In this document: positions 43 through 49,593 of the stretch, in pieces
Layout: each line of letters opens with the position of its first letter
How positions within the stretch are numbered: position 1 is the stretch's first letter
Virus record (IMG/VR): IMGVR_UViG_3300025529_000009
Span: 1-49,593 of that record
DNA from: a virus
Taxonomy: Duplodnaviria; Caudoviricetes
Reading direction: 5' to 3' (one strand)
Length of the DNA stretch: 49,593 nt
The notes under the pieces: model-generated
The model's database searches: none
What the model was told of the DNA's origin: nothing
What the model saw: the letters and a program-made list of their open reading frames with translations, nothing else
Position numbers and translations under genes: made by a program

Positions 43-118
43 GATCCGGTAGCTCAGTTGGGAGAGCACCATCTTGACAGGGTGGGGGTCGCTGGTTCGA
101 ACCCAGTCCGGATCACCA
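43..118 (+). tRNA. tRNA-Val(GAC), the prophage integration target
   Basis: 76 nt; acceptor stem GATCCGG/CCGGATC, D arm TAGCTCAGTTGGGAGAGC, anticodon loop TT-GAC-AG, T loop GGTTCGAAC, encoded CCA. Confidence 0.95.
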
Positions 119-120
119 TA
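74..120 (+). repeat. attL core, 47 bp (tRNA 3' half)
   Basis: TTGACAGGGTGGGGGTCGCTGGTTCGAACCCAGTCCGGATCACCATA is identical to 48442-48488. Confidence 0.95.
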
Positions 121-132
121 CATAAGAAGCTG

Positions 133-161
133 AAACCCTTGAGAAATCAAGGGTTTTTCTT
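133..161. terminator. Intrinsic terminator after the tRNA, convergent with int
   Basis: AAACCCTTGA-GAAA-TCAAGGGTTT hairpin followed by a T-rich tail. Confidence 0.75.
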
Positions 162-163
162 AT

Positions 164-228
164 GTTGTCATGTACCCACCCTGACAACATGGTCCCTCTT
201 CGTTGTCGCTTGACAACATTTTGACAAC
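164..228. promoter_or_regulatory. Putative integrase arm-type sites, left
   Basis: TGACAAC at 182, 211 and 222, inverted GTTGTCA at 164; the same motif occurs three times near attR. Confidence 0.7.
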
Positions 229-238
229 CTTTATTGAA

Positions 239-1378
239 CTAAAGCGTTTTCGGACGACTTTGCTTCATCATCTTCTCGAAGTTGTCAGCAGCTTCTTTTT
301 GCATATCGGGCAAGACGTGGCTGTACACATCCATGGTTATGCCTACCCGGCTGTGTCCAAGTCGTTCTGAAACCACTTTCGGATGCTCTCCGAGCTGCAA
401 GAGCATCGTCGCGTGTGTGTGCCGCAGATCGTGGAAGCGAATGTACGGCAGGCCACTTCTCTTTATGATCCGCTCGTAATGCCGAAGGAGGTTGCGCGGG
501 TCTTGCGGCCGACCGTCATCGTAGCATACAACGAGATCGTGGTCCTGGTAGCCAGCGCCATATTGAAGCTTGAACTTGTTTTGCTTGGCCTTGTGAGATT
601 TTAACTCCTGAACAACGAAATGTGGGATGGCGATCCGCCTTTTCGCGCTTTTTGTTTTTGGCTCCTGGAAGATGATCCCTGAATTAGAGGGACGGTATAG
701 GGTCTGCTGCACGCTGATTCTAGCCTGATCGAAATCGATATCCTTCCAACGCAGGCCCAGAATTTCCCCGCGTCGCATGCCGGTGTAAATCGCCAGGACA
801 AATGCGATGTAGTATTTATCCTCCTTGGCATATGACAAAAACTCATTTGCTTGTTCTGCTGTCCAGGTGACGATTTCCTTTTGGGCCAGACGCGGAGGAT
901 CGACATGCTCCATGATGTTTTTCGGGATCAGCTGCCATTTCACTGCTTGGTTGAGGGCCTTACTCAGCACTGCGTGCAGATACTTAATGTAGTCGGCGGA
1001 GAGATCCTCTTTTTGAAGATCCGTCAAATATTTGGTGACATGCAATGGTGACAGCTTGTCCAACTCGTGGTGACCGAGCGCAGGGATGATTCGGCTCCTC
1101 ACGGCAACCTCGTGGTTGGTATAGGTGGATTGCCTGAGTTTTGTCTTTGCATAATTCTCCAACCAAAATTCCAAGTAGCTCGCCAGCGTTTGTTTCTTCG
1201 AAATGACCAGCTCGCCGCGCTCATACTGAGCGATCATCTCAGCGCATGCAATCTCCGCCTCTTTTTTGGTCTTAAATCCGGAGCGTGTAATCTGCCGGCG
1301 CTTTCCTGTCTCGGGGTCAGTCCCCAGAGAAACTGCGAACGACCAAGTACTGCCACGTTTTCTAAAATGTCCTTTCAT
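239..1378 (-). CDS. int: Prophage tyrosine integrase with N-terminal arm-binding domain
   Basis: N-term KRRQITRSGFKTKKEA; catalytic motifs TGMRRGE, HDLRHTHA, LGHS, DVYSH; next to attL. Confidence 0.95.
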   Translation of the reverse strand: MKGHFRKRGSTWSFAVSLGTDPETGKRRQITRSGFKTKKEAEIACAEMIAQYERGELVISKKQTLASYLEFWLENYAKTKLRQSTYTNHEVAVRSRIIPALGHHELDKLSPLHVTKYLTDLQKEDLSADYIKYLHAVLSKALNQAVKWQLIPKNIMEHVDPPRLAQKEIVTWTAEQANEFLSYAKEDKYYIAFVLAIYTGMRRGEILGLRWKDIDFDQARISVQQTLYRPSNSGIIFQEPKTKSAKRRIAIPHFVVQELKSHKAKQNKFKLQYGAGYQDHDLVVCYDDGRPQDPRNLLRHYERIIKRSGLPYIRFHDLRHTHATMLLQLGEHPKVVSERLGHSRVGITMDVYSHVLPDMQKEAADNFEKMMKQSRPKTL

Positions 1379-1436
1379 GGAATCCCATCCTTTCTCGCTA
1401 ATTCAGAATTTATGATGTAGAGAAGCACTGTTAAAA

Positions 1437-2516
1437 TCAAAACGGAAGGTCATCGTCCTTTATTTGAAAATCCGCAAATGGATCAATAGATGCTTGTTTT
1501 CTTATATCTTCGTTCTCCTCTTCCCATGATTTCAATAACCCGGATTCAAAAAACGTAGAAGTCGAGCCACACTGAACACAAAACCGAGCATCACCGTCTA
1601 AAAATGCTCCACAACTATTTTGGAATTCAATATGCCAAGGGCCATTATACCGGTTACCCGGTTCATCCGAGAAACCAGTGCATTTGTTAACCAAATATGC
1701 TCCACAAATTTGACAATAGTCACCAATGATATGTTCGTTCTGACATCTAGGGCATTGGATAGCCCTATGTAATTCATCCAAGTTAATTCCGGAGTAATGC
1801 ATTTCATCGAACCCCTTTCTCTTTGACAAATGGTTATGCCCACAGACTGGACAGAATTTTGCAGTTTGATGGATAAAGTAATGGTTGCAACGTAAACAAT
1901 ATTTTGAATTAAGGACCGAATGTATAAATCCTTTGAATTGGGTAAGTAGTATGAATGCAAAATTTATTGCTTTAAGCGAATCCTTTTTTAAAAACTGAAG
2001 CCTTGTTCTAGCTGCAGATTGAGAGACGTGAAAATAATACACTAAGTCATGCACAGATTTTATTCTTAATTTATTCACTAGAGGGGCTGGAGCCAGTGTG
2101 TTTCTGGCAAAACAGTTTGCCTCATTTTCCAGAACTTTGTATTTCTCTTCGGTTAATTTGCTTCTTGATAGTATTGTTTCTTCAAAATCAACTAAATGAT
2201 TTAGATAAATATGGCCGATTTCATGCATTAAGGTAAAACGGATTCTTCCAAAATTATCAATCGTGTCGTTATAAGCAATTGTGTAATTTCTTCCGTTAAA
2301 CATCACGTATCCGTCTTCACTTTGAAACGCTTCACAAATTTCGGCCACAGTAACATTATGCTCATTTGCTAGTTCTGAATAAGTACAAAGCCCCCATTTG
2401 TTTCTTCTAATTATTTCAAAAGGGTCTATAGGAAATTCCGTTATGTCCTCTTTTAAAAGAAAATCATAGGCAGATCGCATAGCCTTTTCATATCGAGCAG
2501 CTTTAGGAAATTGCAT
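1437..2516 (-). CDS. ImmA/IrrE-family metallopeptidase (anti-repressor) with C-terminal zinc ribbons
   Basis: RFTLMHEIGH (HExxH), ENEANCFA, several CxxC pairs; lies between repressor and integrase; AT-rich. Confidence 0.88.
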   Translation of the reverse strand: MQFPKAARYEKAMRSAYDFLLKEDITEFPIDPFEIIRRNKWGLCTYSELANEHNVTVAEICEAFQSEDGYVMFNGRNYTIAYNDTIDNFGRIRFTLMHEIGHIYLNHLVDFEETILSRSKLTEEKYKVLENEANCFARNTLAPAPLVNKLRIKSVHDLVYYFHVSQSAARTRLQFLKKDSLKAINFAFILLTQFKGFIHSVLNSKYCLRCNHYFIHQTAKFCPVCGHNHLSKRKGFDEMHYSGINLDELHRAIQCPRCQNEHIIGDYCQICGAYLVNKCTGFSDEPGNRYNGPWHIEFQNSCGAFLDGDARFCVQCGSTSTFFESGLLKSWEEENEDIRKQASIDPFADFQIKDDDLPF

Positions 2517-2878
2517 TACTTATCATCTCGCGCCTCATCACCTCGGTTACTTAGTGATTTAATCAAATTTTTGAGCAGAACCCTGTTCCCTGAATCAAGT
2601 TTCTGAATATCCCTAGCTAGCGATCTGACTTCTTCATCAATATCTTCAAAGTCGGCATTTGTTGGCTGTACATACGGATCGTTTGTACGGCCAAGCAGGT
2701 AATCTGTAGATACACCTAAAATCGATGCGATTTGATTCAATTTTTCAGTAGGTGGGGTGCTTTTGTCCCGCTCGTAACTGGAAAAGTTGGCTTCGGTCAT
2801 ATTCAACTTTTCTGCCATTTGACTCTGTGTAAAGCCTCTTTTCAGCCGAAACTCTCTGATCCTTGAACCAAGAGACAT
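2516..2878 (-). CDS. XRE-family HTH repressor (ImmR/CI-like)
   Basis: HTH TQSQMAEKLNMTEANFSSYERD and GVSTDYLLGRT; coupled to the peptidase gene; divergent from cro. Confidence 0.9.
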   Translation of the reverse strand: MSLGSRIREFRLKRGFTQSQMAEKLNMTEANFSSYERDKSTPPTEKLNQIASILGVSTDYLLGRTNDPYVQPTNADFEDIDEEVRSLARDIQKLDSGNRVLLKNLIKSLSNRGDEARDDK

Positions 2879-2890
2879 AATTAACCACTC

Positions 2891-2946
2891 CTAAAATTAA
2901 ATTTTAGCAAAAGGGTATTGCTCAAATAAAATTTGAGTGGTATAGT
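2891..2946. promoter_or_regulatory. Genetic switch: two 17-bp operators and the rightward sigma-A promoter
   Basis: CTAAAATTAAATTTTAG (2891-2907) and CTCAAATAAAATTTGAG (2921-2937); TTGCTC-17-TATAGT (2918-2946) with extended TG. Confidence 0.8.
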
Positions 2947-2979
2947 GATATTACAGCAACAGAGGAGGTGTAAAACGGA

Positions 2980-3213
2980 GTGGCTGGAACCACTAAACCA
3001 CGAATTCGACTGAAGGAACTCAGGATGCAAAAAGGGACTCAGCGCAAGGTGGCGCAGGATTTAAACATCACCGAAACACACCTTCGTGAGTTGGAAAACG
3101 GAAGGTCGGTGCCGGGAACCAAACTATTGATTAGGATCGAACACTATTTCGGTGTGTCCGATAAGGAGCTGTTCCCCGATTTGCATGAACCCAATTTTTA
3201 CTTGTGTGATTGA
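2980..3213 (+). CDS. Cro-like XRE HTH protein
   Basis: TQRKVAQDLNITETHLRELENGRSVP; RBS GAGGAGGTG; divergent from the repressor. Confidence 0.85.
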   Translation: MAGTTKPRIRLKELRMQKGTQRKVAQDLNITETHLRELENGRSVPGTKLLIRIEHYFGVSDKELFPDLHEPNFYLCD

Positions 3214-3323
3214 CTCAAATTTAGTTTTACCAGATAGCTTGATTATATACCTAAATTTGAGTTTCCGCAAGTATAATTTGTGGTGCTTATTTAAGTATGC
3301 CCAAAACTCAAATTTAATTTGAT
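3214..3323. promoter_or_regulatory. Additional operator copies downstream of cro
   Basis: CTCAAATTTAGTTTTAC (3214), AAATTTGAG half-site (~3253-3261), CTCAAATTTAATTTGAT (3307). Confidence 0.65.
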
Positions 3324-3338
3324 ACGTGAGGTGAAAAG

Positions 3339-3542
3339 ATGGAACAGTTACAGATTTTCAATCACGCTGACTTCGGTGAGGTGCACATTATTCACATCAA
3401 CGGCAAGGAGATGTTTGCTGCTACTCAAGTGGCGACAATCCTTGGCTACTCAAACCCTCGAGACGCAATCGCAAAGCATTGCCGCGAAGAGGGGGTCGCG
3501 TTTTACGACGTCCCTACTCCCGGCGGCACACAGCAATTTTGA
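3339..3542 (+). CDS. Truncated Bro-N domain protein (possible pseudogene)
   Basis: LQIFNHADFGEV...VATILGYSNPRDAIAKHC...GGTQ, then a stop before the Bro-N INESGLY segment. Confidence 0.65.
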   Translation: MEQLQIFNHADFGEVHIIHINGKEMFAATQVATILGYSNPRDAIAKHCREEGVAFYDVPTPGGTQQF

Positions 3543-3560: not shown

Positions 3561-4367
3561 GTGGACAAACCGCAGATTTTCCGACATTCAATTTTTGGCG
3601 ATCTGCCAGTAATCATTGTGGACGGGGTTGAATGGTTCGGGGCAACGGAAGCAGCTAAGGCGCTATCATTTGCAAAACCTCATGATGCTATTAACAACCA
3701 CGTGGATGAAGATGACTCCGCGGTCTACGGAGTCACCGACTCACTCGGTAGAACGCAGCAGAAAAAATTCATTAACGAGTCCGGCCTTTACAGCTTAATT
3801 TTCGGAGCTGCCAAACAAGGCAACAATCCAGAGATTCAAGCTAAGGCCAAAGAATTCAAAAGATGGGTCACAAGTGAAGTCCTCCCGTCCATCCGCCAGC
3901 ACGGCGGTTACCTGACGCCGGAAAAAATCGAGGAAGTACTGCTCAACCCGGACACGATCATCGACCTGGCGCAGCGGCTTAAACAAGCAAATGAAGAAAA
4001 AGCCAAACTGGCCGCAAAAATCGAAGCTGACAAACCGAAAGTCCTCTTTGCAGAAGCTCTCGAAACATCAAGCAACAGCATCTTGATCGGCGAATTAGCA
4101 AAGCTGCTCAAGCAAAACGGCGTCAATATCGGCCAGAATCGGCTATTTGAACGGCTGCGGAATGAAGGGTACCTGATGAAGACGAAGGACGAACGCTGGA
4201 ACGATCCGACGCAAAAAGCGCTTGAACTCGGACTGTTCGAGATCAAGAAACGAACAATTAACGGCCCTGACGGCACGGTGCGAACGGTCAAGACCACGAA
4301 GGTGACCGGAAAAGGCCAGATTTACTTTATCAACAAGTATAAGGGCGAAGCAGTACAAGCCATATAA
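3561..4367 (+). CDS. Phage antirepressor, Bro-N plus KilAC/ANT domains
   Basis: FINESGLYSLIF, FKRWVTSEVLPSIRQHGGY, KPKVLFA, TTKVTGKGQIYFINK. Confidence 0.92.
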   Translation: MDKPQIFRHSIFGDLPVIIVDGVEWFGATEAAKALSFAKPHDAINNHVDEDDSAVYGVTDSLGRTQQKKFINESGLYSLIFGAAKQGNNPEIQAKAKEFKRWVTSEVLPSIRQHGGYLTPEKIEEVLLNPDTIIDLAQRLKQANEEKAKLAAKIEADKPKVLFAEALETSSNSILIGELAKLLKQNGVNIGQNRLFERLRNEGYLMKTKDERWNDPTQKALELGLFEIKKRTINGPDGTVRTVKTTKVTGKGQIYFINKYKGEAVQAI

Positions 4368-8904: not shown

Positions 8905-9507
8905 ATGAAAATCGATAATCAAGCAACAAAAGTAATCACCGGAAAGGTTCGTCTTTCTTACGTACACGTCTTCGAGCCGCAGCAGGACGACCAAGGCAAT
9001 GACAAATACAGCACGGCCATCCTGATCCCCAAGTCGGATAAGGAGACACTGCGCAAGATCAAAGCCGCCATTGACGCCGCTGTCGAGCTTGGCAAAAACA
9101 GCAAGTGGGGCGGCAAGGTCCCGGCCAACCTCAAGAAGCCGCTGCGTGACGGGGACGAAGAGCGCCCGGACGATGAGGCATATGCCGGCCACTACTTCCT
9201 CAACGCAACCAGCCGCAATAAGCCGGGCATCGCCAAACCGATCGGCAAGGGGCCAGACGGCAAAACCAGGTTCCAGGAGATCACGGACAGCACCGAGGTA
9301 TACAGCGGCTGCTATGCCAAAGTAAGCCTTAACTTCTACCCATTCGATGCGAAGGGCAATCGCGGGGTAGCTGCTGGCCTGAATAACATCGTGAAAGTGC
9401 AAGACGGGGATTTCCTGGGCGGTCGTGCAAGCATCCAGGATGAGTTCGCCGACGAGGAATTTGACGACGTTATTAACGCCGATGACGACGAAGACTGGAT
9501 GAGCTAA
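8905..9507 (+). CDS. DUF2815 family ssDNA-binding protein (T7 gp2.5-like)
   Basis: VRLSYVHVFEP, PLRDGDEER, VYSGCY, GNRGVAAGLNN, acidic tail. Confidence 0.9.
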   Translation: MKIDNQATKVITGKVRLSYVHVFEPQQDDQGNDKYSTAILIPKSDKETLRKIKAAIDAAVELGKNSKWGGKVPANLKKPLRDGDEERPDDEAYAGHYFLNATSRNKPGIAKPIGKGPDGKTRFQEITDSTEVYSGCYAKVSLNFYPFDAKGNRGVAAGLNNIVKVQDGDFLGGRASIQDEFADEEFDDVINADDDEDWMS

Positions 9508-45967: not shown

Positions 45968-46010
45968 AAGCCCTCTGCCGGGAAGCCGGTGGAGGGCTTT
46001 GTTTTGTTTT
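45968..46010. terminator. Terminator at the end of the late operon, between convergent genes
   Basis: AAGCCCTCTGCCGG-GAAG-CCGGTGGAGGGCTT followed by TGTTTTGTTTT. Confidence 0.8.
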
Positions 46011-47056
46011 TATCTGCTCCGTACCATCTCCACTAGTCCATGATCAAGCTGATGGCTGTGGAGCGGGTGCCTTTTCATGGCGTCCATGACCTTGCTCGTG
46101 TCGATCGCCAGGTAGTGCTCCAGCGTCTGGACACGAGCGTGGCCGCTGATCTCTTTCAAGACGAACAGGTCCACTCCCTGCTTGTGCAGGAACGTCAGGC
46201 AGCTACGCCGCAGCGCATGGAGGCTGAGCCCGTCCTTGTAGATGCCGAGCTTCTTGGCATATGACTTGAACAGCCAGTCGATCCCCTTCTCGCTGTATGG
46301 CTTACCGTATTTGGTCAGAAACAAGGTCTGGTCGTCCTCATTCGTGACAAAGTATTTCCTGCCGCACCGGTACCGGTTGATTTCGTGTCGACTCTTCCTC
46401 TTCCTCTTCTTTTTCTGAATCTCCTCATACACGATCCCGTTTTGCAGATAGAGCTGCAGCGCGTTGACCAACTGCGGAATCATCGGGATCACCCGGTCCT
46501 TACCGCCTTTCCCGTCCCGCACATGGATGTACCCCTCTTCGAAGTTGACGTCGTATGTTTTCAAGGTGATCAGCTCGCTCACCCGAACGCCAGTAAAAAG
46601 GAACGTGGCAAAGATGGCGTAGTCGCGGATCGCATACCTTCCAGTCAGCATAATCCCGTCCAGCAGAGTTTTTGCCTGCTGCTCCCCAAGCGTAATCGGC
46701 ACCGTCTTGGGCACCTTCATCCCCTGGATGTTCTTGGCCGGGTTTTTGACGATGTCGTAGTCGTCGTGATCGACAAAGTACTCATAGAACGACCGGATCA
46801 CGGACATATGCCGATTGACGGTACGTGGCGCCAGACCAGCGTCGACGAGACTGAATTTGTACTCACGGATATCCTGCTGCCGAAGCTCCAGCACGTCTTG
46901 CGTGGTAAAATGGCCGATGAACCGGCGCAGATCAGTTTCGTACCCAGTCAGCGTCTTCGGCCGCGCCCCTTTGTCGCTTTTCATGTACAGCAGAAATTCT
47001 CGCACGTAGAGATCGTTGGTCTGAGTTTTGACGATGCTCACCACATTCCCGTGCAT
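46010..47056 (-). CDS. Second tyrosine recombinase, XerC/D-like without arm domain
   Basis: TGVRVSE, GKGGKDR, HALRRS, SGHA, LEHY: complete R-K-H-R-H-Y set; RBS GGGAGGGG. Confidence 0.9.
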   Translation of the reverse strand: MHGNVVSIVKTQTNDLYVREFLLYMKSDKGARPKTLTGYETDLRRFIGHFTTQDVLELRQQDIREYKFSLVDAGLAPRTVNRHMSVIRSFYEYFVDHDDYDIVKNPAKNIQGMKVPKTVPITLGEQQAKTLLDGIMLTGRYAIRDYAIFATFLFTGVRVSELITLKTYDVNFEEGYIHVRDGKGGKDRVIPMIPQLVNALQLYLQNGIVYEEIQKKKRKRKSRHEINRYRCGRKYFVTNEDDQTLFLTKYGKPYSEKGIDWLFKSYAKKLGIYKDGLSLHALRRSCLTFLHKQGVDLFVLKEISGHARVQTLEHYLAIDTSKVMDAMKRHPLHSHQLDHGLVEMVRSR

Positions 47057-48335: not shown

Positions 48336-48441
48336 GCACTTAAAGAAAACAGGTAAATTTAAATTAACTGGATACAAGAAAAACCGCAGTAGAATGCGGT
48401 TTGTGCAGTACGGTTAACTATTTGTAATATGGTTGATCAAA

Positions 48442-48488
48442 TTGACAGGGTGGGGGTCGCTGGTTCGAACCCAGTCCGGATCACCATA
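48442..48488 (+). repeat. attR core, 47 bp (duplicated tRNA-Val 3' half)
   Basis: Identical to 74-120. Confidence 0.95.
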
Positions 48489-49593
48489 ACAGGTATATCA
48501 AGGGTTTGTAGACGATTAGACAACATAATAAATGTTGTGGTCGAATACAAACACGCTTTCAAATAGAAAGCACACTTTCTTTCAGTATCAGAAAACTGGA
48601 GGGGAGTGTGCTTTTTCGTGTTATTAAAGTTTGCCATTAAAGATTTCAAGGAGGATCGAGAATTTAAAAACTTATCGCCTAAAACAATCGAAACGTACAT
48701 GTCATCCCTCAATGAGTTTCAAGAATTCTGCGGAAAACAAGAAATTGTCGATGTGAGTGACGTAACACCTAATATCATTAAAAATTATCTGATGTATTGT
48801 CAGAAAGAACGAAACAACAATGTAACGACCAGAAACAGTAAACTCCATGTTCTGAAAATCTTCTTTAATTACCTTGAAGAGATCGAAGTCATTACACAAA
48901 AACAAAATCCTGCTAAAAGAATTGGGTATGGGAAAGAGGACATAAAAATTGAAGTATTCCAAGATAGGCACATTCATCAAATGCTTAGTTACTACAGGAG
49001 ATTAAAGCAACGCGAAAAATCGTTCTTTGCTTACAGAGATTACACTATGATTGTGTTTTTGCTTGGAACAGGCGTTAGATTAGGCGAATTGGTCAATCTG
49101 ATCTGGAATGACGTTGACTTGAAAAACGGTACAATTATCGTTTTTGGCAAGAAGCGACAGCAAAGTTCTATCCCGTTAACCAAGAAACTGATCAAAGAAC
49201 TTTGCGAGTACAGGGTATTTTGTGAGCAGACGTTTGGTGAGATTCCCGACTATGTATTTACAGACGTTGAGGGGAAAAAACTCACTGATAATGCTGTAAA
49301 GTGCGTCTTTAAGCGACTAAAAGAGATCATGAATTTTTCTGATGTACGTTTATCAGCCCATACTTTCAGACACACTTTTGCCCATAGAATGCTGATGAAC
49401 GGTTGTGATGTTTTCACATTGCAAAAAATGCTCAGGCATAGCAATATTGCAATGACGCAAAGGTATCTGGCAATCTGGGGAGTAGCACTTAGGGAACAAA
49501 ATTCAAAATATAATCCATTGAACACCTTGGATATTTAGAAGAGGACACATTACCGGTCAAATGAAAAGAATCTGAATGAAAACTAAGGGAGGA
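48489..49593. mobile_element. Left end of a second integrative element in tandem at the same tRNA
   Basis: AT-rich DNA with a tyrosine integrase ~130 bp from the tRNA 3' duplicate; continues beyond the window. Confidence 0.7.
48618..49538 (+). CDS. Tyrosine integrase/recombinase of the adjacent element
   Basis: TGVRLGE, GKKR, SAHTFRHTFA, LRHS, TQRY; start at 48606 or 48618. Confidence 0.9.
   Translation: MLLKFAIKDFKEDREFKNLSPKTIETYMSSLNEFQEFCGKQEIVDVSDVTPNIIKNYLMYCQKERNNNVTTRNSKLHVLKIFFNYLEEIEVITQKQNPAKRIGYGKEDIKIEVFQDRHIHQMLSYYRRLKQREKSFFAYRDYTMIVFLLGTGVRLGELVNLIWNDVDLKNGTIIVFGKKRQQSSIPLTKKLIKELCEYRVFCEQTFGEIPDYVFTDVEGKKLTDNAVKCVFKRLKEIMNFSDVRLSAHTFRHTFAHRMLMNGCDVFTLQKMLRHSNIAMTQRYLAIWGVALREQNSKYNPLNTLDI

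Follow-up and report, generated by a model that had tools for sequence, protein, structure and literature searches.

A prophage ImmA-type metallopeptidase ending in a tip like that of the host single-stranded DNA-binding protein: a candidate tether to the replication fork

P0001, a predicted metallopeptidase of the ImmA/IrrE type encoded in a prophage, ends in a peptide that looks like the C-terminal tip of bacterial SSB, the protein that binds single-stranded DNA. Comparative support is strong for regarding tails of the P0001 type as putative host-tuned mimics of this tip. In addition, several homologs carry host DnaX's C-terminal domain, with the tip or replacing it and in separate clades, which would be a new observation. 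The switch itself is of a known kind: P0001 is a member of the M78 ImmA/IrrE family (Peptidase_M78, COG2856) and, by its context, part of an ImmA/ImmR-like switch; what seems to be new is the addition of host-tuned SSB mimicry and of an unexpected second module. In the full-text literature searched (main texts), no description was found of an ImmA protease bearing an SSB-like tip or a DnaX domain. The window, that is, the whole stretch of viral DNA analyzed, comprises 49,593 nucleotides, and its features are collected in Table 1.

Table 1. Coordinates of P0001, its parts and the surrounding features in the window.
Feature	Position	Strand	Basis
P0001, M78 metallopeptidase of the ImmA/IrrE type (359 aa), bearing zinc ribbons and an SSB-tip-like tail	1437..2516	-	ORF translation, Pfam
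Peptidase_M78 domain of P0001 (residues 67-173)	1998..2318	-	Pfam, fold search
HEIGH of P0001 (residues 98-102)	2211-2225	-	translation
First zinc ribbon of P0001 (C207, C210, C222, C225)	1842..1898	-	alignment
C-terminal zinc-ribbon module of P0001 (residues 255-331, the last being the invariant W331; in some relatives encoded by a gene of its own that has the tail)	1524..1754	-	alignment
Putative SSB C-terminal-tip mimic of P0001, IDPFADFQIKDDDLPF-stop	1437..1487	-	translation, alignment to SSB tails
XRE/ImmR-like repressor, 120 aa, HTH only, predicted substrate	2516..2878	-	Pfam; PADLOC capH 3e-17
Cro/Xis-like HTH gene, divergent, 77 aa	2980..3213	+	ORF list, Pfam
Tyrosine integrase (379 aa), immediately downstream of P0001	239..1378	-	ORF list, Pfam
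attL, perfect repeat of 47 bp, within tRNA-Val(GAC) (43-118), 3' part	74..120	+	repeat search
attR, other copy of the 47-bp repeat	48442..48488	+	repeat search
Operator-like 17-bp palindrome 1	2891..2907		pattern derived from sites 1 and 2
Operator-like 17-bp palindrome 2	2921..2937		pattern derived from sites 1 and 2
Operator-like site 3, immediately past the Cro-like gene	3214..3230		2-3 mismatches
Operator-like site 4	3307..3323		1-2 mismatches
Phage's own SSB, Enc34/gp2.5 type, C-terminus ...DDDEDWMS	8905..9507	+	Pfam, PHROG

An earlier note, made from the sequence alone, had described P0001 as an ImmA-like HExxH protease with zinc ribbons, and this description holds: besides the HEIGH motif, the protein contains Peptidase_M78 (PF06114, 35.8 bits against a cut-off of 22), a DZR match that is also above its cut-off in Pfam, and five CxxC pairs. 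The four cysteines of the first ribbon are invariant in 105 of 105 aligned rows, as are E130 and E132 in the alignment, one of which is likely the third zinc ligand. The AlphaFold model, based on 105 alignment rows, has a pLDDT of 94. A fold search of this model with Foldseek returned CapP (7t5t, E 2.2e-4) and PprI (8sln, E 8.7e-4) as the sole PDB matches at E<=0.001, with TM-scores by query of only 0.25-0.30. P0001 also matches capP in PADLOC (4e-17) and PHROG 19315, of unknown function (7e-86), while no NCBIfam model scored above its cut-off. Both CapP/CapH (a CBASS regulator, 7T5T) and IrrE(PprI)/DdrO of Deinococcus (8SLN, 3DTI) combine an M78 peptidase and HTH fold like that of P0001 with an XRE repressor that the protease cleaves, as is predicted here too. 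CapP and IrrE, however, end in a GAF domain, which neither Pfam nor the AlphaFold model revealed in P0001, where zinc ribbons, a helix and the tail make up residues 201-359; for this reason P0001 is considered CapP/IrrE-like in its working, yet is classed as neither. The accounts of CapP and IrrE compared, as far as their available parts go, mention no tail mimic.

The C-terminus of P0001 reads DPFADFQIKDDDLPF (translation of 1437-2516 on the minus strand), and the longer C-terminal stretch reads ...KQASIDPFADFQIKDDDLPF-stop, with its last 16 codons at 1440-1487 and the stop codon at 1437-1439. A helix is predicted at residues 331-343, just before the SSB-like tip. PF00436, the OB fold of bacterial SSBs, was not found in P0001 or in G000, which makes the protein a candidate SSB mimic and not an SSB. 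A search of the ESM Atlas with residues 240-359 gave nothing but zinc-ribbon clusters. The gene has a GC content of 36.5%, against 53.7% across 3001-47000. A contig of sequencing run X1 spans 135-3400 without mismatch, X1 being possibly the source of the window and hence not independent; runs X2 and X3 (RNA) cover only small pieces of the stretch. Among GenBank phages 33 records match, four of them across more than 80% of the length; all four are annotated there as hypothetical, and one also lists the neighboring repressor.

The neighborhood of P0001 is an immR-immA-int module, in a 48.4-kb prophage bounded by the 47-bp att repeats. The repressor, whose stop codon overlaps the start of P0001, has HTH matches alone in Pfam and no S24 domain in its 120 residues, as had been stated from the sequence. 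The divergent promoter (2879-2979) and the stretch past the Cro-like gene have four related 17-bp palindromes in or near them; the pattern was built from sites 1 and 2, and 0.45 chance matches to it are expected in the window. Perfect matches to the consensus of a LexA/DinR-type box numbered none in the window against 0.96 expected. The ImmA/ImmR systems of Bacillus subtilis ICEBs1 and phage phi105, as they appear in the account of PMC8767453, share with this module an XRE repressor lacking a self-cleavage domain, and an M78 anti-repressor and an integrase in one immR-immA-int unit. ImmA is a protein of 19 kDa in that account, whereas P0001 is 359 aa long and bears both zinc ribbons and the SSB-like tip. 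A route of induction independent of CI self-cleavage had been proposed together with the tail: it fits the general rule of ImmA/ImmR switches, but it is not specific to the tail. The possibility that the tail copies the phage's own SSB was rejected, given that this protein is of the Enc34/gp2.5 type and has another C-terminus; the model copied would then be the SSB of the host.

The tails of 15 host SSBs of the Bacillales type align to DPFAxDGKPIDISDDDLPF. The tail of P0001 has both elements of these proteins, the DPFA element and the IxDDDLPF tip, and fits the ISDDDLPF type best (five of eight residues); the nearest homolog of named source comes from a Brevibacillus bin (63%). With the tip of SsbA (...ISDDDLPF) P0001 shares acidic and hydrophobic residues, a Pro-Phe at the true C-terminus and the DPFA upstream, and lineage-specific variants occur alike in SSBs and in the P0001 family. 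The SSB tip sits on an OB fold, whereas that of P0001 sits on a protease, presumably without the four-fold display on single-stranded DNA (ssDNA).

The match was quantified in pairs formed by each tail and the SSB of the same tip-bearing genome, the copy ahead of an rpsR-like frame being preferred; tip-less homologs were excluded, as were G020 (no PF-ended SSB), G198 (no SSB match), G327 and G396. Over the eight residues before PF, 39 pairs have 124 identities against 75.2+-6.7 by permutation. After removal of eight near-duplicates, 31 pairs have 100 identities against 59.9+-5.7 expected, which bears out the likeness to host SSB on which the earlier note had turned, and 14 de-duplicated pairs from searches blind to the tail have 55 against 37.1+-4.3. 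All three sets reach the floor of 20,000 permutations (P 5e-5); when only the first 11 tail-blind pairs are taken, P is 0.055 at the position preceding PF and 0.002 over eight residues. Five tails belong to hosts whose SSB has an extra residue after PF, and three of these tails have it too, against none of the 34 others; the EELPFN of the Lachnospiraceae type is among the host-matched tips. Individual tails illustrate the match: FMNIPDDIDEELPFN against FMNIPDGIDEELPFN in the host SSB (L246), PIDDGDIPF against PVDDGDIPF (L252), NIDVDDDVPF against DINVDDDVPF (L022), and DGKPIDIDYDDLPF against DGKPIDISDDDLPF (L155). The similarity extends over 10-15 residues and includes the residue past PF.

Kinship among the proteases was considered in two comparisons, both of which rest on a poorly resolved module tree of 97 columns. 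Tails resembled the SSB of their own host better than that of the nearest relative's host, where this was of another type, in 18 cases, worse in six and equally in seven (p 0.023), and a partial Mantel test controlling for kinship gave r 0.33 (p 2e-4). There are also mismatches with the host: L018, L025, L063 and L072 share none of the last four residues, and L040 and L051 lack the extra residue of the host SSB. In 12 tail/ssb comparisons, identical codons are used at 45 of 94 identical residues. This divergence of codons where residues are kept makes selection at the protein level likely; a recent capture of DNA from ssb was rejected on the same codon identity.

The family of homologs is large: a profile search counted 635 clusters (50% identity, E<=1e-30). 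In the first 121 homolog records (two of them identical) a PF or PW end was found in 79; among 150 representatives at 50% identity, 90 have a Pro-aromatic end and 14 more have one with an extra residue. When these searches were pooled, 253 homologs had the last zinc module complete, and in 182 of them the tip was present, lying 26-158 residues past the last CxxCG; the queries included the tail, so that these counts are biased towards tail-bearing homologs. Searches with a tail-free profile of the module (A2), over 401, 400, 401 and 292 scored genomes, identified 22, 17, 5 and 20 module-holding genomes, of which 12, 3, 3 and 7, respectively, have the tip; the search that gave 3 of 17 covered one clostridial class. 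In total this amounts to 23 of 62 distinct genomes, five of the 62 being broken or without a listed ORF. The conservation of the tail, central to the earlier note, is thus confirmed for most complete homologs, but the tail is missing in 71 of the 253 and is present in a minority of the tail-blind genomes.

The tip follows the zinc ribbons. In loci L001-L087, one extra residue being allowed, a Pro-aromatic end was found in 29 of 62 zinc-ribbon ORFs and in none of 32 ribbon-less M78 ORFs (Fisher 3e-7). The background among neighboring ORFs of at least 100 aa is 7 of 611, of which one is a host SSB and two look by eye like phage SSBs. These figures agree with the proposal that the protease ends in an SSB-tip mimic. 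When 269 bodies were placed on a tree built without the tails, the tip proved scattered, with 48 changes of presence; it is missing from six of 16 integrase-linked loci (one of the six being frameshifted). Wear is common among the tips: only 112 of 182 still have a pair of adjacent acidic residues close to the end, and in one Bacillus clade little more than LPF is left. A terminal LPF or LPY is found in 86 of the 182 tails, that of P0001 included, the others ending in IPF, MPF, VPF or PFN, and P0141 has two tandem tips. Nine loci (L025, L035, L040, L046, L051, L063, L071, L072, and L085) have a split form, with a long tail-less protease followed by a separate tip-bearing zinc-ribbon gene of 110-146 aa. 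The genes upstream of homologs are nearly all of the XRE type (87 neighbor ORFs scanned of 143 listed), and an integrase or serine recombinase lies at most two genes downstream in 16 loci. The AU test against a single clade for the Lachnospiraceae-type tips gave p 1e-36, which is weak support in view of the fact that this group was picked after seeing the 269-body tree. On these comparisons the tip is judged to be real, linked to the zinc module, either ancient or gained repeatedly, and often lost.

A second type of C-terminal extension points to the same host machinery. Among 33 homologs with at least 67 residues past the zinc module, eight extensions (six distinct) match the last 77-123 residues of Lachnospiraceae DnaX with 41-61% identity. 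The extension of L245 is identical at 57 of 100 positions to the C-terminus of the DnaX of its own host, identified via NCBIfam and the gene order dnaX-ybaB-recR, and shares 22 of 55 codons with that dnaX; this locus has a repressor-like gene on one side and a recombinase-like ORF on the other. The extensions of P0094, P0249 and L245 reach the terminus of tau itself, while P0107 and P0115 have the tau domain and a PF-x tip together. The six distinct homologs do not form one clade (AU p 1.8e-5, the group having been set by BLAST before the tree); P0249 and the tip-bearing P0218 are sisters with a support of 99. P0139, P0185 and P0192 have more remote matches to a DnaX profile (3e-10 to 2e-6). 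In the ESM Atlas the extension of L004 scored 0.86-0.88 against clusters of DnaA_N and PolC-N, which are leads only, and a profile from 13 extensions matched DnaA domain I only at E 0.19; for the remaining extensions, among them the groups L004/L252 and L025/L046, no DnaX or DnaA assignment was reached. P0001 lacks the DnaX domain, and in the six homologs the domain is detached from the clamp-loader ATPase to which it belongs in DnaX. According to work in E. coli and Bacillus, the C-terminal domain of DnaX is the one that binds the helicase or the polymerase. Binding of DnaX to the helicase and to PolC is reported (PMC13220808).

The SSB tip and the tau domain are unrelated host modules, found at the same position and both taken from hubs of the replication fork, which favors a role as a tether; the presence of DnaX domains there also favors, of the options in the earlier note, that in which the protease reaches the fork. 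With about even confidence, and judging from sequence comparison, we propose that the tip is an accessory tether of the predicted ImmA-type protease to the fork machinery of the host. The known partners of the SsbA tip are RecO, PriA, RecG, RecQ, RecS, RarA, RecD2, and DnaE. The tip would copy the docking tip of the host SSB and likely bind host fork proteins in the pockets that take the SSB tail; this binding would tether the protease at replication forks, where ssDNA or RecA filaments may switch it on. The activated protease would then cut the neighboring repressor and induce the prophage. RecO would be the first choice as a partner, a guess based on its action where RecA is loaded, with PriA, RarA, RecG, RecQ/S, RecD2 and DnaE as alternatives. 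The tether would raise the sensitivity or speed of induction and would not be the core trigger; since many relatives have no tail, the tip is read as an accessory or amplifier and not as a defining element.

Published work offers a setting for this proposal. The C-terminus of SsbA directs repair proteins to forks, and RecA loading depends on it, RecO being the key partner (PMC3000357, PMC10804225). ImmA cleaves ImmR, and both RecA and RapI raise its activity by a mechanism that the account at hand leaves unexplained (PMC8767453). Activation by ssDNA is described for CapP and PprI in the portions available (bioRxiv 2022.04.27.489752, PMC10904395), and the pneumococcal ImmAR prophages vary in their dependence on RecA, according to the part of that report consulted (PMC12637031). 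It is important to note that the tip would rival the abundant SSB for the same pockets, so that binding at the fork is not self-evident. No partner shared by the SSB tip and DnaX is described in B. subtilis, which suggests the fork, and not one protein, as the common ground of the two modules.

The best surviving alternative, which we regard as unlikely, is that an SSB partner sequesters or inactivates the protease through the tip, and that the tails on accumulated SSB-coated ssDNA free the protease, which then cuts the repressor. Conservation and host match fit this equally well, and the split forms carry the tip on a small separate zinc-ribbon protein that might be a regulator. A phage SSB-like protein with a DDIPF tip is the subject of preprints, and one with an FDDDIPF tip is proposed to disturb a host SSB partner and thereby trigger DRT10 (10.64898/2026.04.29.721553). 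The trigger could be SSB-coated ssDNA from damage or the SSB of an incoming phage. Nevertheless, loss of the tail would be expected to cause constitutive induction, yet tail-less versions are found in apparently stable integrase-linked loci; moreover, SSB tails do not compete off the variants with a DnaX domain.

Three further alternatives are improbable, each to a similar degree and more so than the preceding one. In the first, the tip is a pseudo-ligand in a pocket of the protease's own body, and its displacement by SSB tails or ssDNA would allow direct sensing. Such a latch would also explain host tuning. The tail has a pLDDT of 71-80 in P0001 and 63 in a homolog with a long linker, above what is usual for a fully free tail; across linker and tail of both AlphaFold models the values are 63-85, with no stretch below 50, and the length of the linker varies from 26 to 158. 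Basic residues R91, R118, R172, R251, and R311 are conserved, and among the columns listed, M239 (86/53%), F322 (83/53%), I270 (77/55%) and K217 (34/10%) are commoner in tail-bearing than in tail-less proteins. These four differences are not robust to the tree, however, with median sign-test p of 0.125, 0.227, 0.125, and 0.031, respectively, uncorrected for some 330 columns. Nor was covariation found between tail and body by mutual information over 148 rows (the highest z was 3.7, whereas pairs inside the body reached 13), and the DnaX domains, which as folded modules suit a tether and not a pseudo-ligand or a degron, are left unexplained. A predicted complex of the tail-less body (residues 1-342, A1) with a 30-residue host SSB tail (A4) scored 0.01, and it is counted on neither side.

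In the second, the terminal LPF would be a degron that delivers the protease to ClpXP, maybe via an SSB-partner adaptor, keeping its level low until stress stabilizes it and induction follows. In Streptococcus mutans UA159, a terminal LPF or DDDLPF makes GFP and SsbA substrates of ClpXP, and the last six residues of that SsbA, DDDLPF, are the same as in P0001 (PMC5143411, in the part available). More ImmA derepresses ICEBs1, according to the account cited above (PMC8767453), and LPF alone survives in worn tips. Against this, the same S. mutans source states that LPF led to degradation in just three of six strains and not in vitro, and that none occurred in E. coli, S. gordonii or S. sanguinis (PMC5143411); thus the motif is strain-specific there, and many tails of the P0001 family end otherwise, LPF or LPY closing only 86 of 182. 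The matches to host SSB also span 10-15 residues and the residue past PF.

In the third, the tip would be a bait for annealases of the RecT, Sak, and Red-beta types brought by incoming phages, whose binding would activate the protease. Phage annealases act via the SSB tail in a host-tuned manner, as far as the available parts of two reports indicate (PMC11846896, PMC13490951), and restriction-modification or candidate defense genes lie downstream in several loci. The outcome could be escape of the element or expression of a defense cargo. On the other hand, the DnaX domains suggest contacts with the host replisome, and most close homologs adjoin integrases and not defense genes. Finally, it is very improbable that the tails are functionless leftovers from recombination events involving ssb or dnaX 3' ends: frequent loss (71 of 253; 48 changes on the tree) would agree with this, but residues are kept while synonymous sites diverge in both ssb (45 of 94 codons) and dnaX (22 of 55), the tip remains at the true C-terminus over a long-branched tree, P0141 has it in tandem, and it never occurs in ribbon-less M78 relatives (0 of 32).

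The accessory tether can be extended, more tentatively and with somewhat less than even confidence, to a widespread group of replisome-tethered proteases in Bacillota, in which mobile elements would have repeatedly grafted a host-tuned SSB tip or a DnaX/tau domain onto ImmA. On the question of how ImmA-type anti-repressors sense damage, the tip offers a handle of six to nine residues. This handle could be removed, moved from one host's version to another's, or exchanged for the DnaX domain as a natural alternative, and the natural tail-less and split versions serve as controls. If the proposal is true, this would be a first physical route bringing an ImmA protease to its damage signal, and the decision between lysis and lysogeny, or on excision, would be read directly at the replication fork. 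If the tether holds, prophages and integrative elements would plug their switch into the fork hub of the host by mimicry, which would also bear on their host range.

The C-terminal SSB-like tip, where present, normally follows the zinc-ribbon module in the homologs of the window protease, and several variants of this arrangement were found. The tail of P0141 consists of two Lachnospiraceae-type tips in tandem (…IDEELPFSSDDYDEELPYN), and the tip is also found on short zinc-ribbon ORFs of three loci (L151, L166 and L168). P0215, a 236-aa M78 protein, lacks CxxC and yet ends in an acidic IPF tip; it is an exception to the link between tip and zinc module. In L004, L252 and L258 a further domain, whose fold weakly resembles those of the PolC N-terminus and of DnaA domain I, is inserted between zinc module and tip. 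P0118 (614 aa) carries three N-terminal HTH domains fused to protease and tip.

A split form is present in nine loci (L025, L035, L040, L046, L051, L063, L071, L072 and L085), in which a protease of 457–485 aa, ending in an 80-residue alpha/beta domain, is followed downstream by a gene for a zinc-ribbon protein of 110–146 aa with the SSB tip. Next to this pair, on its downstream side, L035 has genes for a TcmP-like and a radical SAM protein, and so, judging by size and Pfam, do L040, L046 and L071. Other homologs are interrupted by a frameshift or stop, or are split (L007, L008, L246 and L248), and the downstream piece still bears the tip in L007, L246 and L248. A tail-less clostridial group (L031, L036, L044, L055, L060, L065 and L174–L186) adjoins genes of housekeeping type, among them those for a transporter, URO-D, prismane and an HAD hydrolase, and not integrases, and is perhaps a domesticated repressor-protease pair.

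In the window itself, GC content is 36.5% in the protease gene and 41.9% in the repressor gene, against 50.6% in the integrase gene and 53.7% in the rest; the two low-GC genes are therefore suggested to be a swapped-in immunity cassette. Four related 17-bp palindromes are candidate repressor operators, and a BRO-N/KilAC antirepressor, preceded by a short BRO-like ORF, is a possible second route of derepression. At the right end of the prophage, the tRNA-Tyr predicted by ARAGORN overlaps attR and is possibly an artefact of a duplicated tRNA end.

Features of the window and of the homolog and host loci
Feature	Location	Strand
Low-GC protease and repressor genes	window 1437-2878	
Candidate operators	window 2891-2907, 2921-2937, 3214-3230, 3307-3323	
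Short BRO-like ORF	window 3339-3542	(+)
BRO-N/KilAC antirepressor	window 3561-4367	(+)
Second tyrosine recombinase, within right end of prophage	window 46010-47056	(-)
tRNA-Tyr	window 48393-48486	
Third tyrosine recombinase, just beyond attR	window 48606-49538	(+)
Inserted domain	L004:4012-4263	
Inserted domain	L252:1183-1434	
Inserted domain	L258	
Split form, example	L046:4938-6696	
Interrupted homolog	L007:2980-4381	
Interrupted homolog	L008:5001-5804	
Interrupted homolog	L246:1426-2516	
Interrupted homolog	L248:1405-2515	
Homolog with DnaX C-terminal domain	L245:1141-2460	(-)
DnaX of its host	L311:1414-3024	(-)
Host YbaB/EbfC	L311:1019-1372	(-)
Host YbaB/EbfC	L307:1974-2327	(+)

EbfC may be a further native carrier of a PF tip, since both host YbaB/EbfC proteins end in GGFPF and Streptococcus mutans EbfC has LPF at its C-terminal end, according to PMC5143411. 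The C-terminal domain of DnaX (tau) of the host is fused to ImmA-zinc-ribbon homologs, with identities of 41–61%. Apart from the L245 protein, compared with the DnaX of its own host, the domain is carried by P0094, P0107, P0112, P0115, P0116, P0119 and P0249, and its carriers fall in separate clades. These fusions are a finding in their own right, beyond the support that they give to the proposed tether to the replication fork.
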